Shown: positions 27,001 through 30,000 of the stretch, piece by piece
Position numbering within the stretch: the first letter of the stretch is position 1
How the letters are laid out: each line of letters begins with the position of its first letter
From: Candidatus Omnitrophota bacterium
GTDB taxonomy: Bacteria > Omnitrophota > Gorgyraeia > JAGLLT01
Direction of reading: 5' to 3'
Length of the DNA: 50,134 nt
Assembly: GCA_023140385.1 (NCBI GenBank)
Contig: JAGLLT010000008.1
Coordinates: 1 to 50,134 of the forward strand
Program-made: the position numbers

Positions 27001-30000
27001 AAACAGACTTTGTAGTTCCCCGCTCCCTCGGTATCATAAGGCACTTAGCAGAACAACAAATCTTGCGCCCATAATAGCTTCCTCCTTCGCTAAAGCTTCC
27101 GCCTTCGCTCTAAAGCTACGGCGGACGGGGCGGCGGACGGGACGCTATGGCTTAAGTAGAAAATTCACAGATGCGCCCATAGCTCAATTGGACAGAGTAG
27201 CGGTCTACGAAACCGTTGGTTCCCCGTTCGAATCGGGGTGGGCGCGCCACCGTACCATTCGCAAAATTTTTAAATTTTGCTCAGGTACGGTGCGCGGCAC
27301 AGGGTTAGTTTAGTGTTGAGTATGTCTAATACAGAGATTAGTCTGGTACAGAGGCGTGTCCCGTACCCGAAAGCATTTGAGTGGTACGGGGAGGATTAAA
27401 AATGTATTTTGTTTATGTACTTATAAGTAAAAAGGATAAGGCTTTTTATATTGGTTTTACGGAAAATGTTGAAAAGAGATTGAGTGAACACAATAGAGGC
27501 GAGGCGGTAAGCACCAAGTCAAGAAGGCCGCTTGTATTGATGTATTATGAGGCGCACTTATCGAAGATAGACGCATTGAGAAGAGAAAGGTATTTTAAAT
27601 CTAGTAAGGGAAGAACTACGTTAAAGCAAATGCTCTGCGAGAGTTTGAGAAGCGGTTTATAATTGATAAAGATGAATGATGAATATTATATGCGGGAGGC
27701 GCTGAAGCTTGCCGTTGAAGCTTTTAAGGCGGATGAAGTGCCGATGGGGGCGGTGATAGTACATAAAGATAGAATTATTGCCAAAGCCCACAATCAAATA
27801 AAGACCCTAAAAGACCCCACGGCTCACGCTGAGATGATTGCCATTACTCAGGCGGCCAGTTATCTTAAAAACGAACGCCTCATTGATACTGTGATGTATG
27901 TAACCATTGAACCTTGCGCGATGTGTATGGGCGCCTTGATACTGGCCAGAGTTAACAGGCTTGTTTACGGAGCGGATGACAGTAAAGCCGGCGCCTGCGG
28001 TTCGGTGATGGATTTATCAGATAATAAAAAATTAAATCACAGCATAGAGGTTAAAAACGGCATTCTTGAAGATAGCTGCCGTGATATTATACAAGAGTTT
28101 TTTAAATTAAAAAGAAAGAAGATCCTTCGCTGAAGAAGCGGTGAAAAGCAATTATAACATGGAGAGGTGCGAGAGCGGCTTAATCGGCGCGCTTGGCCAC
28201 CGCCTATGGCGGGGTCCCGCTCTCTTCATTGAAGATACTTCTTTCGGAGAAGCGGTGAAAAGCGAAACAAGAACTATGTTTTACGTTTATATCTTGAAAA
28301 ATAGTGAAAGCAAATATTATACTGGAATGACATCTAAGCCCCCTGAAGCCAGATTAAAAGAACATAATTCTAATGCAAATAAGTGGACAAAAAATAAAGG
28401 TCCTTGGGGTCTTATTTATGCAAAAGCTTTTGAAACAAAAAAAGAAGCTTGGTTAAGAGAGCGTCAGATTAAAAAATATAAAGGCGGAAGTGCCTTTAAA
28501 GAATTAATCCGGAGAGGTGCGTGAGCGGCTTAAACGGCACGCTTGGCCACCGCCTATGGCGGGATCCCGCTCTCTTCATTGAAGATACTTCTTTCGGAGA
28601 AGCGGTGAAAAGCAATTATAACATGGAGAGGTGCGTGAGCGGCTTAAACGGCACGCTTGGAAAGCGTGTGTACTTAACGGTACCCTGGGTTCGAATCCCA
28701 GCCTCTCCGCCAGCCTAATCCCATAAGCAGTTAATTCCCTTGACGTTATATATAAAAGTAGTAAAATCAAGGTGTTAACTGCTTTTTGTATTTTTATATA
28801 AATCTTGCATATTTTTATGTTTTTTGAGACTTGTGACACGAAAATGACACGTTATAGCAAATAATAGTTTAACCTAAGGGAGGTTATTAATGGATGGTTA
28901 TGATGCTGCGTTTGTAGCCCCCTGCACATAGACTTCCCTTATTAACAAGTTGACTACCGAAGTTAACGTAGTCACTAAAAATATTTCCAACATAATGTCT
29001 ATGGTAGAAAAAAGCTGGTCTCAACAAAAACTCGCTCAGGAAGCAGGATTATCCTTTAATGCAATAACAAAAATTGAACAGGGACTAGCAAAATATCCAA
29101 CACTAAAAACTCTTAGCAAATTGTCTAATGTTTTTCAAATTGGCATAGATGAATTAGTTGGAAGAGGAAAAACAAATTTTATTAGGATTAAAAATGGAAA
29201 ATTATGATAATACTCACAAAATCTTAACAAAAACTGGACCTATTAGAAAAGGCTTCGATTATCAAGATGCTTGTGCTGCCTTCTTGTTTGTAAAATGGCT
29301 TAGGTACCCAGCAGAAAAAAAATGGGTTAAATTGGAAGCAAAAGAGTGTGGCTTTTTGGATGACATTGTTTTTGTAAGTAAGGATAATACACTATTTCTA
29401 AAACAAATTAAGTATTCATGTCATCCAGAAACCCCGCAAGATGAATGGAGCTTGGAGTCAATATTAAAAGAACCACAAGGGAAAAAAACCAAAAGACAGT
29501 CTTTATTTAAAAGATGGTTTCTGTCTTGGCAGGAATTTCGAGAAAAAAAGTCATTTCGCGAAGTAAAGGCAGAATTACTAACCAATCGAAAAGCCTCTGA
29601 AAACATAATTAATGTTGCTGAAATGTGTGATAACTCTACGGCAATAATTATTGATATCAAAAAGCTAAAAAAATTGTCTCCCGAGCATTATCAAGAGATG
29701 CTTAGGCAAATAAAGCCCTACAAAAAGAAGCATTTAAGGACTTTTTTTAATAATTTTAAATTTAATTTTGACCACTATTCTTTAGAAAGAATGTGGACTC
29801 AAACAGAAGTGATTTTTAAAGAACTGGGTGGGAGTGGTGGTGCATGGTTAGCTTTTAAGGAAAAAATTAGAGAGTGGGCTATAGAACAAGATAAGCCATC
29901 TAAAGAAGGCTTAATAAAAATAGAGGACTTAAGAAGTGCGGCAGGGTGGGAAAAATTAAAAGCGTTAAATCAAGAATTTTCAATGCCAGACGACTTTGAG

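Follow-up and report, generated by a model that had tools for sequence, protein, structure and literature searches.

Phage SegB, a GIY-YIG nuclease, cuts inside tRNA genes and often lies beside tRNAs, and it drives a tandem amplification whose unit joins the tRNA 5′ end to the segB 3′ end (available part of PMC13096335). With SegB of T4 and T6, the small genes analyzed here share the GIY-YIG domain and a free-standing position in a tRNA region. However, SegB comes from phages and has a DNA-binding part, whereas the present proteins are cellular, 79 to 92 aa long, and consist of the catalytic domain only. The cellular counterpart of the T4 Seg endonucleases that was proposed in the initial annotation therefore holds as an analogy only, as the proteins lack a DNA-binding domain and belong to a different branch (UPF0213/Slx1). 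Their best sequence matches of solved structure are the UPF0213 proteins BH0048 and EF2693 and SLX1. Eukaryotic SLX1 needs SLX4 as well as a zinc-finger part, and the latter is missing from the present proteins. The minimal domain, which is common to these proteins, is typical of prokaryotic Slx1-like proteins, for which the available excerpt of PMC1564403 reports neither a tRNA-gene neighbourhood nor a duplication of tRNA fragments nor mobility.

Integrase islands and prophages likewise target tRNA genes, and one example stands in the window (28713–44919), the window being the whole analyzed stretch of 50,134 nucleotides from a Candidatus Omnitrophota contig (JAGLLT010000008.1). Such islands carry a complete and a partial tRNA copy at their two ends, and the examples in the available part of PMC9897764 measure 9–121 kb and encode a recombinase, whereas the inserts described below span 0.24–0.43 kb and hold one nuclease gene. 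They further differ from integrase elements in their fixed orientation and in that duplication affects the 5′ and the 3′ part of the tRNA equally often. In the mitochondrial, free-standing GIY-YIG element of Allomyces atp6, the nuclease gene reportedly moves with part of its target gene and is said to leave behind a functional hybrid gene together with a displaced remnant. In the window, the working tRNA-Ser(GGA) and its relic copy 1 fit this pattern, although the Allomyces case is organellar and involves a protein-gene target and an in-frame fusion. REP/RAYT systems consist of a small nuclease-type gene of the HUH fold flanked by inverted hairpin repeats, with hundreds of REP copies. They have no tRNA link and a different enzyme fold, and the hairpin modules of the window reach 2–4 copies in the genome, which rules out a REP-like genome-wide system here. 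A literature search of sources other than subscription journals returned no description of GIY-YIG cassettes at tRNA genes.

A PF01541 profile search of the genome gave six matches, all of them above the cut-off (54.5–62.7 bits vs. 22.6), and the features around the three in the window are collected in Table 1. As the initial annotation claimed, four of the six lie near a co-oriented tRNA, at domain-to-tRNA distances of 62, 153, 146, and 49 bp, and the overlap of the C5 frame with tRNA-Gln was confirmed at 15 nt; on contigs C44 and C7, with one GIY-YIG gene each, a tRNA was not found. Random 240-bp intervals of this genome fell within 155 bp of a same-strand tRNA in 0.60% of cases (0.93% for a limit of 350 bp), and the probability of at least four linked genes out of six under the former null is approximately 2 × 10−8. 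The annotated link was confirmed and proved stronger than stated, the initial annotation having put the chance rate at approximately 3% per gene.

Table 1. Features of the three GIY-YIG loci of the window and the remaining GIY-YIG frames of the genome. Window coordinates equal contig coordinates; U type, tRNA upstream; D type, tRNA downstream.
Feature	Position	Strand	Support
tRNA-Ser(CGA), intact, host gene of the downstream cassette	14041–14131	+	ARAGORN
Spacer beginning directly at the tRNA-Ser(CGA) 3′ end	14132–14192	+	sequence
GIY-YIG gene (14193 gene), 80 aa, U type	14193–14435	+	PF01541 55.5 bits
Right arm of inverted repeat, 8 nt past the stop codon of the 14193 gene	14443–14454	+	
tRNA-Ser(GCT)	26023–26116	+	ARAGORN
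Hairpin array behind tRNA-Ser(GCT), without GIY gene	26117–26291	+	repeat family D4, BLAST
tRNA-Arg(ACG), intact	27173–27249	+	ARAGORN; Rfam tRNA 61.5 bits
Hairpin array from the first base past tRNA-Arg to GIY1	27250–27401	+	
GIY1, 86 aa, U type	27402–27662	+	PF01541 59.5 bits
tadA (tRNA adenosine deaminase), resident between cassettes	27672–28133	+	PF14437, PF00383
Leader (27 nt), then relic copy 1 of tRNA-Ser(GGA) nucleotides 1–36	28134–28196	+	
Filler: short hairpins, copy of the last bases of tadA, truncated leader	28197–28275	+	
GIY2, 82 aa, D type	28276–28524	+	PF01541 61.5 bits
Copy 2 of the tRNA-Ser(GGA) 5′ part, then filler and leader	28511–28624	+	114-nt repeat unit
Working tRNA-Ser(GGA)	28625–28712	+	ARAGORN; Rfam 52.8 bits
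GIY-YIG frame outside the window	C5:70–345	−	
GIY-YIG frame outside the window	C44:11267–11506		
GIY-YIG frame outside the window	C7:43466–43744		

The link that had been annotated for other genomes of the class was recovered in a larger sample, in which 42 of 95 GIY-YIG domains (90 loci, same class) lay within 350 bp of a tRNA, in metagenome bins whose relatives do not count as independent. All 42 were co-oriented with their tRNA, which was upstream in 21 cases and downstream in the other 21. Across many phyla, 32 of 80 relatives' loci, collected with an alignment of four proteins from the GIY1 clade, were linked, and 48 of the 49 tRNAs in these loci stood on the GIY-YIG strand. The association is therefore real, orientation-specific, and widespread. 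It is also partial, with no tRNA within 350 bp of 53 of the 95 class genes and 48 of the 80 global genes. The gene on contig C7 falls in a clade without the link and is probably outside the phenomenon. Cases at tRNA-Lys(UUU) account for 7 of the 42; these may go back to one inherited insertion, and they are spread over more than one clade.

By Pfam, the proteins hold no DNA-binding or other auxiliary domain, and the related nuclease-type domain T5orf172 scored just above its cut-off in two proteins. All 101 proteins compared carry Y5, Y16, G18, R26, and E62, and 100 of them carry H30 and K66; we take Y5, Y16, R26, and E62 to be the catalytic tyrosines of the GIY and YIG motifs, the arginine, and the glutamate, respectively. 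A profile search of the PDB returned at E ≤ 0.01 solely 1zg2, 1ywl, and five SLX1 sequences, with E-values of 4.7 × 10−18 for BH0048, 1.3 × 10−15 for EF2693, and 2.4 × 10−9 to 1.3 × 10−5 for SLX1, and no chain of the I-TevI type at this threshold. The group I intron endonuclease model TIGR01453 remained at 18–22 bits, below its cut-off of 56. Judged by sequence, the proteins are thus members of the UPF0213/Slx1 branch and not of the I-TevI/Seg branch.

Many of the tRNA-linked genes are enclosed by parts of the tRNA gene itself. In the class sample, 14 of the 42 had a tRNA fragment on the far side at E < 0.01, namely a 5′ fragment upstream in 10 of 21 D-type cases and a 3′ fragment downstream in 4 of 21 U-type cases, and two further U-type cases were recognized by eye or at weaker E. 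Such bracketing was found for two of the four linked genes of this genome, where the C5 gene is preceded by a copy of nucleotides 1–12 and 20–35 of tRNA-Gln, and for 4–5 of 32 in the global sample. A comparable fragment within 700 bp accompanied only 2 of 35 GIY-free tRNAs of the genome. Among the 42 linked cases, 26, including GIY1 and the 14193 gene, were without a far-side fragment at E < 0.01. These duplications show that GIY-YIG genes often sit inside partial copies of a tRNA gene, and therefore that they were inserted into the gene and are not merely close to it. Every cassette examined is preceded or followed by a complete tRNA (Rfam tRNA 52–72 bits). A group I intron in the tRNA was ruled out, as there was neither a split tRNA nor an intron family at E ≤ 0.1 in 20 loci.

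We lean towards reading these genes as miniature, integrase-free selfish cassettes that would target tRNA gene boundaries and be read from the tRNA promoter. Alternatively, they could be passive cargo or leftovers of integrase islands, or small circles that an integrase of the host or of an island inserted in trans. Transfer RNA genes serve generally as hot spots of insertion. On its 3′ side, tRNA-Ser(GGA) bears a classical island with a tyrosine integrase, which ends in a 27-nt repeat of the tRNA 3′ end at 100% identity. The direct repeats of the tRNA 3′ end behind U-type cassettes (13–23 nt) resemble attachment cores, and the integration of elements is known to produce tRNA fragments (available part of PMC9897764). 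A similar arrangement was seen on contig C9, where tRNA-His is followed by a 552-bp insert with a receiver-domain gene and then by a 36-nt copy of its 3′ half. However, the 14 bracketed inserts hold the GIY gene and nothing else, and their small span leaves no room for a recombinase. The orientation is always sense, and half of the cases combine an upstream insert with a duplicated tRNA 5′ part, an unusual outcome for an integrase. With fragment ends that vary from position 12 to 55 and hairpin types that are specific to clades, we consider an integrase origin unlikely.

Two of the window cassettes flank tadA. GIY1 stands between this gene and tRNA-Arg(ACG), the substrate tRNA of TadA. The array in front of GIY1 closes with a GGAGG ribosome-binding site and folds with a z-score of −3.78 (0 of 200 shuffles equally stable), and relatives of GIY1 are preceded by this hairpin type in many genomes. 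At the tRNA-Arg/tadA site, GIY1 occurs in this genome (G000), in G006 (79% protein identity), and, frameshifted, in G007, and it is missing from G001 (114-bp spacer) and G003 (144-bp spacer). The remaining spacers measure 26–60 bp, with the exception of approximately 263 bp in G027, and no GIY domain was found at E < 1e−3 in these loci. G003 has kept the hairpin array without GIY1, the final hairpin being cut within its loop. The tRNA-Gln site is empty in G003 as well, with a promoter-like spacer of approximately 50 bp where approximately 700 bp stand here; the annotated alternation of occupied and empty copies at one syntenic tRNA site was thus borne out at two sites. Separately, locus L106 shows the tRNA-Arg/GIY1/tadA arrangement of the G006 type with a protein 81% identical to GIY1, and its organism label seems unreliable. 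The same seems true of the labels of some other relatives (‘uncultured Planctomycetia’ etc.), and no argument for transfer across phyla was built on labels.

GIY2 is set among three copies of nucleotides 1–36 of tRNA-Ser(GGA). Relic copy 1 ends after the second anticodon base, and its D-stem pair is A12:T24, as in G001 and G003, with G29 like G001. The filler behind it, whose fold is not significant against shuffles (z −1.4), recurs at 28547–28613 with 98.5% identity. The final 14 nt of GIY2 (four codons, part of a fifth, and the stop) lie within copy 2, which is 100% identical to the working tRNA. In the working gene the pair is T12:A24, which G006 and G013 share and its own genus does not. 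The resident tRNA-Ser(GGA) allele was thus replaced next to GIY2, a change that, at three sites, fits co-conversion. The 114-nt repeat around GIY2 resembles the tandem tRNA-segB unit of the phage case (available part of PMC13096335). Of the 10 loci that reach tRNA-Ser downstream of tadA, only G000 has GIY2, whose sister L061 adjoins tRNA-Ser(GGA) in another family. A joint transfer of tRNA and GIY2 from a G029-like donor was ruled out, as the D arms of tRNA-Ser(GGA) differ. At the GIY2 position, G001 has a 136-aa frame, for which no Pfam family was found and the protein atlas gave unnamed clusters only. The helix-strand order of this frame is similar to that of a LAGLIDADG fold, a resemblance that was unsupported. 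The single-sequence model reached a pLDDT of 52, which is insufficient for a fold search.

At the 14-kb locus, the first 12 nt of the spacer (14132–14143) form the left arm of an imperfect inverted repeat, to which the right arm is complementary at 10 of 12 positions. The match is weak on its own, and sister locus L102_0 lends it support with a long repeat (approximately 43–45 nt, alignment score 36). The spacer gave four hits in a BLAST search of the genome, a related unit is tandemly repeated at 9094–9245, and the fold of the spacer alone was not significant against shuffles (z −1.2). The array behind tRNA-Ser(GCT) folds with a z-score of −3.49 (0 of 200 shuffles equally stable), and its last module shares 94% identity with the one preceding GIY1. 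At the same site, G001 retains the C-terminal half of a GIY gene (hmm positions 30–79).

Over a wider set, the spacers between tRNA and GIY gene had a median fold z of −4.64 (n = 47) vs. −0.53 for 28 other tRNA trailers, while two of the three window spacers fold no better than shuffles. Individual GIY clades have their own hairpin types. Beyond tRNAs, a search of 20 loci with Rfam at E ≤ 0.1 returned one riboswitch that has no connection with the cassettes and a few chance hits below threshold, so that the hairpin modules matched no described RNA family, ribozyme, or intron. A hammerhead-like reading of the TCCYGAG...CGARGG box was discarded, since most copies, inspected by eye, do not preserve the core positions.

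The hairpins could also mark the ends of cut-and-paste mini-transposons, with the GIY-YIG protein cutting the inverted repeats and the tRNA duplication as target-site duplication. In 19 of 94 loci, where approximately 5 were expected, flanking inverted repeats scored above the 95th percentile of a cross-locus control, and at least four repeat families track GIY clades; of 95 loci, 14 have a left box upstream and 5 have its mirror downstream. However, the duplicated tRNA segments vary widely in length, unlike a fixed target duplication, and no genome holds near-identical multiple copies, the window modules being limited to the few copies given above. Among the three window genes, the weak repeat of the 14193 gene is the only one, and we regard transposition of this kind as very unlikely.

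The history of the genes was followed among their relatives. In the GIY tree, clades keep to particular tRNAs, and the associated tRNA has switched often: with 19 states over 46 tips, the tree needs 28 such changes of identity, fewer than each of 1000 shuffles. Frameshifted and truncated copies occur among relatives, and copies of one genome belong to different clades, none being near-identical, which gives no sign of recent jumps within a genome. Four runs contain the stretch, all as contigs, none of which joins across GIY1 or GIY2 or shows an empty allele or an excised form; this is neutral with regard to excision. Two ‘skips’ at 28187 stem from tRNA-Ser genes of other organisms and include 25–32 foreign letters.

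Co-orientation in 42 of 42 cases, together with frames that end within the tRNA, would also suit housekeeping nucleases that act on tRNAs or their precursors and share a transcript with these substrates. For prokaryotic Slx1-like proteins, fusions or links to a COG4123 methyltransferase and to a TrmH-type tRNA methyltransferase are described, in which the authors saw a hint that the proteins function in RNA metabolism (available part of PMC1564403). In the tRNA-free clade, 5 of 18 loci adjoin a tRNA-modification gene (MiaB-type in three, MiaA in one, a pseudouridine synthase in one), and tadA is flanked by GIY1 and GIY2. The latter, however, is explained by the fact that most of the 12 loci examined place tadA between two tRNA genes; all 12 contain it (next to tRNA-Arg(ACG) in 10 and upstream of tRNA-Ser in 11). 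Nor would a housekeeping role be expected to come with neighbours from 19 tRNA species, with 1 to 16 PF01541 matches per genome, with broken copies and sites that are occupied or empty in close relatives, or with genes bracketed by tRNA fragments. We therefore consider it improbable for the tRNA-linked genes, although it may apply to the clade of the C7 gene only. Co-transcription with the tRNA, which the initial annotation had offered as an alternative, agrees with the strict co-orientation and is equally compatible with selfish genes, so it is not exclusive.

As selfish cassettes, the units would each consist of one minimal UPF0213/Slx1-type GIY-YIG gene, usually with one or more hairpin modules, placed in sense precisely at either end, 5′ or 3′, of a tRNA gene. 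Duplication of the tRNA segment next to the cassette would leave one intact tRNA and a fragment on the far side. From the invariable co-orientation and the frames ending inside the tRNA, we argue that the cassettes would be read from the tRNA promoter, their transcript presumably being released by normal tRNA processing. The nuclease is predicted to cut DNA at tRNA genes and may recognize folded DNA (cloverleaf or hairpin), as Slx1-type enzymes do branched DNA. The break would then be mended from a cassette-bearing copy with the conserved tRNA sequence as portable homology, and this combination would explain a spread without integrase. Two observations sit uneasily with this reading, namely that a protein of 80 aa has no evident means of sequence recognition and that an intact tRNA persists after insertion, which makes the escape of an occupied site from re-cutting a puzzle. 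Thus, the tRNA link, the occupied and empty sites, the broken copies, and the duplications speak for the selfish, tRNA-landing genes of the initial annotation, whereas cleavage at tRNA genes and homing are predictions. More tentatively, the minimal UPF0213/Slx1-type proteins, a widespread bacterial family to which no role is assigned, could include a new class of integrase-free mobile elements that home to tRNA gene loops and precise boundaries. Their nuclease would recognize folded DNA (the cloverleaf of tRNA genes under transcription and hairpins of the element itself) in place of a sequence, with the duplicated tRNA segment as universal homology arm, and the cassettes could thereby cross phyla and replace tRNA alleles, a possibility that we rate as speculative.

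If the cassette reading is true, it would provide the first concrete biology for a large family whose very small nucleases are annotated as ‘GIY-YIG nuclease family protein’. Beside integrase islands and tRNA introns, it would add a third way to exploit tRNA genes, in which a 0.3-kb cassette spares the tRNA via partial duplication and uses the tRNA promoter for its expression. Some of the tRNA fragments and replaced tRNA alleles in bacteria with small genomes (Omnitrophota, Patescibacteria, and others) would also be explained, and a structure-recognizing minimal nuclease active at tRNA genes would offer a simple system for how selfish nucleases find conserved targets.

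Searching the complete genome in six frames with PF01541 returned six matches, all above the cut-off, with products of 79-92 aa. The window begins at the first base of contig C56, and its coordinates are those of the contig. Four of the six had been reported in the initial annotation to lie near a co-oriented tRNA gene, and this count stands, at distances of 49-153 bp; the frame on contig C5 overlaps its tRNA-Gln by 15 nt, and the contigs carrying the remaining two have no tRNA. As only 0.60% of random 240-bp intervals of this genome satisfied the tRNA condition, the probability of at least four of six such genes lying near a tRNA is approximately 2e-8. 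The C44 gene (C44:11080-11540), one of the two without an intact tRNA nearby, looks like a decayed tRNA-linked site: a T-arm-like fragment follows its stop by 13 nt, and a tRNA-like 3' end lies upstream in degenerate form.

Residues Y5, Y16, G18, R26 and E62 do not vary among 101 aligned proteins, and H30 and K66 hardly do, which shows that the encoded proteins are constrained. Among solved structures, a profile built from the six proteins of this genome matched only UPF0213 (1zg2, 1ywl) and SLX1 (E<=0.01), and an intron-endonuclease model tried on the GIY-YIG proteins scored far under its cut-off, which assigns those of this genome to the minimal Slx1-like branch, described without auxiliary domains in a passage by Dunin-Horkawicz and co-workers (PMC1564403).

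With regard to wider sampling, each of the 81 genomes of the class that were searched had between 1 and 16 PF01541 matches; at E<=1e-5 these number 322. The class sample comprised 90 loci with 95 GIY-YIG domains: the best match of each of 30 genomes, and 60 further regions taken by rank from the best 150 of the 322, excluding matches of this genome and those within existing loci. A tRNA lay within 350 bp of 42 of the 95 domains, relatives that are not independent here or in the global sample, tRNA-Lys(UUU) followed by the gene making up 7 of the 42 cases, though spread over more than one clade. All 42 shared the strand, with the tRNA upstream (U type) in 21 and downstream (D type) in 21; across the 90 loci, 63 of 64 tRNAs were on the strand of the GIY-YIG gene. 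When an alignment of the GIY1 clade served as query in a global scan limited to one genome per species, 159 relatives were found, and among the best 80 of these loci 32 had a tRNA within 350 bp, in every case on the same strand (48 of 49 tRNAs overall). The chance rate for both samples was 0.93%. Going by their record titles, these 80 loci come from Omnitrophota, Patescibacteria groups, Planctomycetota, Bacteroidota, Desulfobacterales and others, although some labels look unreliable; all genomes compared are metagenome bins. Among the genes that PMC12455944 predicts to have been transferred horizontally from Patescibacteria, one passage lists a GIY-YIG gene. Nineteen different tRNA species adjoin GIY-YIG genes, and more than half of the family sits away from tRNAs.

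On a FastTree phylogeny of the 101 proteins (midpoint root), labels were more clustered than in 1000 shuffles for tRNA identity (28 changes, shuffled mean 36.5, no shuffle at or below the observed value), orientation type (9, mean 15.6, two shuffles) and tRNA adjacency (20, mean 33.5, none). Since the 28 changes involve 19 states on 46 tips, the genes must have moved repeatedly between tRNA species. Copies of one genome fall into different clades, and the pattern is one lineage per site rather than transposition bursts; cut-and-paste transposition accounts for part of the data and is, in our estimate, quite improbable. The clade of the gene on contig C7 has one member per genome and no tRNA neighbour, and in 5 of its 18 loci (that on C7, L050, L043, L051 and L068) a tRNA-modification gene lies next door (MiaB-type in three, MiaA and pseudouridine synthase in one each). 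On C7 itself (C7:43466-43744), the GIY-YIG stop overlaps the start of a MiaB-type gene. A housekeeping function linked to tRNAs, which likewise accounts for part of the data, is considered unlikely. Other tRNA-free clades have flanking inverted repeats of their own, 15-50 nt long and of at least three kinds (L085, L052, L086, L096, L060, L072 and L065; L049, L079, L029, L078 and L069; L082, L097 and L099). At L097 the GIY-YIG frame continues into a prepilin-like N-terminus, which suggests that tRNA-free lineages may use other conserved targets.

Beyond the initial annotation, GIY-YIG genes lie inside partial tRNA duplications. At GIY2, two 5' copies of tRNA-Ser(GGA) precede the working gene (table below), both breaking off after the second anticodon base. 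Because the filler closes with 23 nt similar to the end of tadA, the unit that is repeated comprises the tadA end, the leader and the tRNA 5' part.

Features of the window around its three GIY-YIG genes
Feature	Position	Strand	Remark
62-nt unit	13858-14035		2.9 copies, directly upstream of tRNA-Ser(CGA)
tRNA-Ser(CGA)	14041-14131	+	ARAGORN
Third GIY-YIG gene	14193-14435	+	
tRNA-Ser(GCT)	26023-26116	+	ARAGORN
tRNA-Arg(ACG)	27173-27249	+	ARAGORN
GIY1	27402-27662	+	between tRNA-Arg(ACG) and tadA
tadA stop, then leader			leader 27 nt
Copy 1 of tRNA-Ser(GGA)	28161-28196		nt 1-36
Filler, then part of leader			51 nt, then 16 nt
GIY2	28276-28524	+	
Copy 2 of tRNA-Ser(GGA)	28511-28546		nt 1-36, overlaps GIY2 frame end
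Filler, then full leader			
Working tRNA-Ser(GGA)	28625-28712	+	ARAGORN
Integrase island	28713-44919		3' side of tRNA-Ser(GGA)
Tyrosine integrase	38525-39580		in the island
Repeat of tRNA-Ser(GGA) 3' end	44892-44918		27 nt at 100%, island end

The C5 gene is arranged similarly, with nt 1-12 and 20-35 of tRNA-Gln(CUG) upstream, parted by a 44-nt hairpin, and the complete tRNA downstream. In the class sample, the tRNA 5' part was copied upstream of the gene in 10 of 21 D-type cases (E<0.01; Pro, Asn, His, Ser, Asp and Glu), ending at positions 18 to 55, and in at least five of these ten, as on C5, the copy is split by a palindrome inserted into its D or anticodon loop. Conversely, the last 13-20 nt of the tRNA recur downstream of the gene in 4 of 21 U-type cases (E<0.01), with two further repeats seen by eye or at weaker E. 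The DNA from fragment to tRNA, calculated from class-sample distances, measures 240-430 bp, i.e. the GIY-YIG frame plus short flanks. Fragments are scarcer in the global sample (4-5 of 32 tRNA-linked loci), and most tRNA-linked copies, GIY1 among them, have no detectable fragment. As a control, only 2 of the 35 tRNAs of this genome that lack a GIY-YIG neighbour are partially copied, in direct orientation, within 700 bp; at one of them (C9:1483-2147), a very small insert of 552 bp, with a CheY-like receiver-domain frame and no GIY-YIG gene, separates tRNA-His(GUG) from an exact 36-nt repeat of its 3' half further downstream. In 13 of 21 D-type cases the frame stops 0-21 nt short of the tRNA or inside it, and in U-type spacers a hairpin begins at the first base past the tRNA; the cassettes (gene plus short flanks) thus abut mature tRNA ends.

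The same tRNA-Ser(GGA) that adjoins GIY2 borders a classical integrase island, which carries an HTH gene, a 2016-aa NACHT/STAND ATPase, a frame with a pPIWI-associated nuclease domain, a TPR protein, the tyrosine integrase, a DNA methylase and a GmrSD-type restriction enzyme. Because 28709-28897 recurs at 35383-35571 (89%), a composite origin of the island is possible. That the GIY-YIG genes are leftovers of integrase elements would explain part of the data, and we regard it as doubtful.

Strong structure marks the spacers from a tRNA to a downstream GIY-YIG gene (n=47, median z -4.64, 89% below -2); the comparison set, 28 other trailers from tRNAs of this genome, had a median z of -0.53 (Mann-Whitney p 2e-9). 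Within the window, this applies to the Arg-GIY1 spacer (z -3.78) and to the GIY-less array past tRNA-Ser(GCT) (z -3.49), while the two other spacers were not strongly structured (z -1.4 and -1.2). Hairpin types track GIY-YIG clades, 19 of 94 loci had inverted repeats across the gene above the 95% control, and the flanking structures matched no Rfam family. The 62-nt unit, present as a single copy upstream of tRNA-Ser(GGA) in relative G003 (L004), may be an amplified tRNA-Ser promoter or leader unit.

The group tRNA-Arg(ACG)-tadA-tRNA-Ser, in which the tadA product edits A34 of the tRNA-Arg, is conserved (window 27173-28712 and L002-L012: tadA in 12 of 12 loci, tRNA-Arg directly ahead in 10, tRNA-Ser downstream in 11). 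The presence or absence of single copies at one tRNA site, noted initially, was borne out here: GIY1 occurs in this genome, in G006 at the same place (79% protein identity; tadA 74%) and, split by a frameshift, between tRNA-Arg and tadA in G007, and is missing in G001, of the same genus, and G003, where the spacers measure 114 and 144 bp. G003 keeps the hairpin array, its final hairpin cut in the loop just ahead of the tadA start, so the absence there is a loss. In G007 (L005), the end of tRNA-Arg that faces GIY1 has taken up another small insertion: the last 19 nt of tRNA-Arg(ACG) recur approximately 150 bp downstream, in front of three trailer-hairpin copies and the broken GIY1.

Among the 10 loci extending to the tRNA-Ser downstream of tadA, GIY2 is found in this genome alone. 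Its nearest relative, in another family and a different neighbourhood, also adjoins tRNA-Ser(GGA), with the same break near position 35. At the GIY2 position, G001 has an unrelated 136-aa frame (L002:1976-2383) that matched no family and whose start falls in a short segment resembling the 5' end of tRNA-Ser; a LAGLIDADG-type fold would fit its helix-strand order and was otherwise unsupported, the single-sequence model being poor (pLDDT 52). Copy 1 has the D-stem pair A12:T24 (also in G003) and G29 of G001, whereas G006 and G013 share T12:A24 with copy 2 and the working gene. As the change is compensating, it shows that each version stems from a functional tRNA gene, and the two alleles imply that a foreign one displaced the resident 5' part. 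The tRNA-Gln site is empty in G003, with a spacer of approximately 50 bp containing -35 and -10 boxes versus approximately 700 bp here; upstream of the cassette (C5:740-800), a stretch of about 50 nt is similar to 14 sites of G001 (71-90% identity), where it forms a dispersed short repeat. Past tRNA-Ser(GCT), this genome has hairpin modules alone and G001 the C-terminal half of a GIY-YIG gene. Population data for this organism, in the form of contigs, showed no sign of excision.

Sense orientation would be needed because an insert parts the tRNA from its promoter (D type) or terminator (U type); it would also give the nuclease gene a strong promoter, and the duplicated tRNA segment would keep one tRNA intact. 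By inference, the nuclease would cut the DNA of tRNA genes, and the break would be repaired from an occupied allele, cassette included, with tRNA sequence as the homology; the tRNA-Ser allele change fits co-conversion. Slx1-type enzymes act on branched DNA, and the boundaries used by the cassettes are the acceptor-stem base and the loops; from these two points we infer that recognition of folded DNA is more probable than that of sequence. A passage of PMC13096335 offers a precedent in phage SegB: this GIY-YIG enzyme cleaves within tRNA genes and gives rise to tandem repeats containing tRNA. Our full-text literature search turned up no description of small GIY-YIG genes beside tRNA genes in bacteria, nor of such genes flanked by tRNA fragments. 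The simplest account is that these genes are tiny selfish cassettes, a family specialised for tRNA genes.
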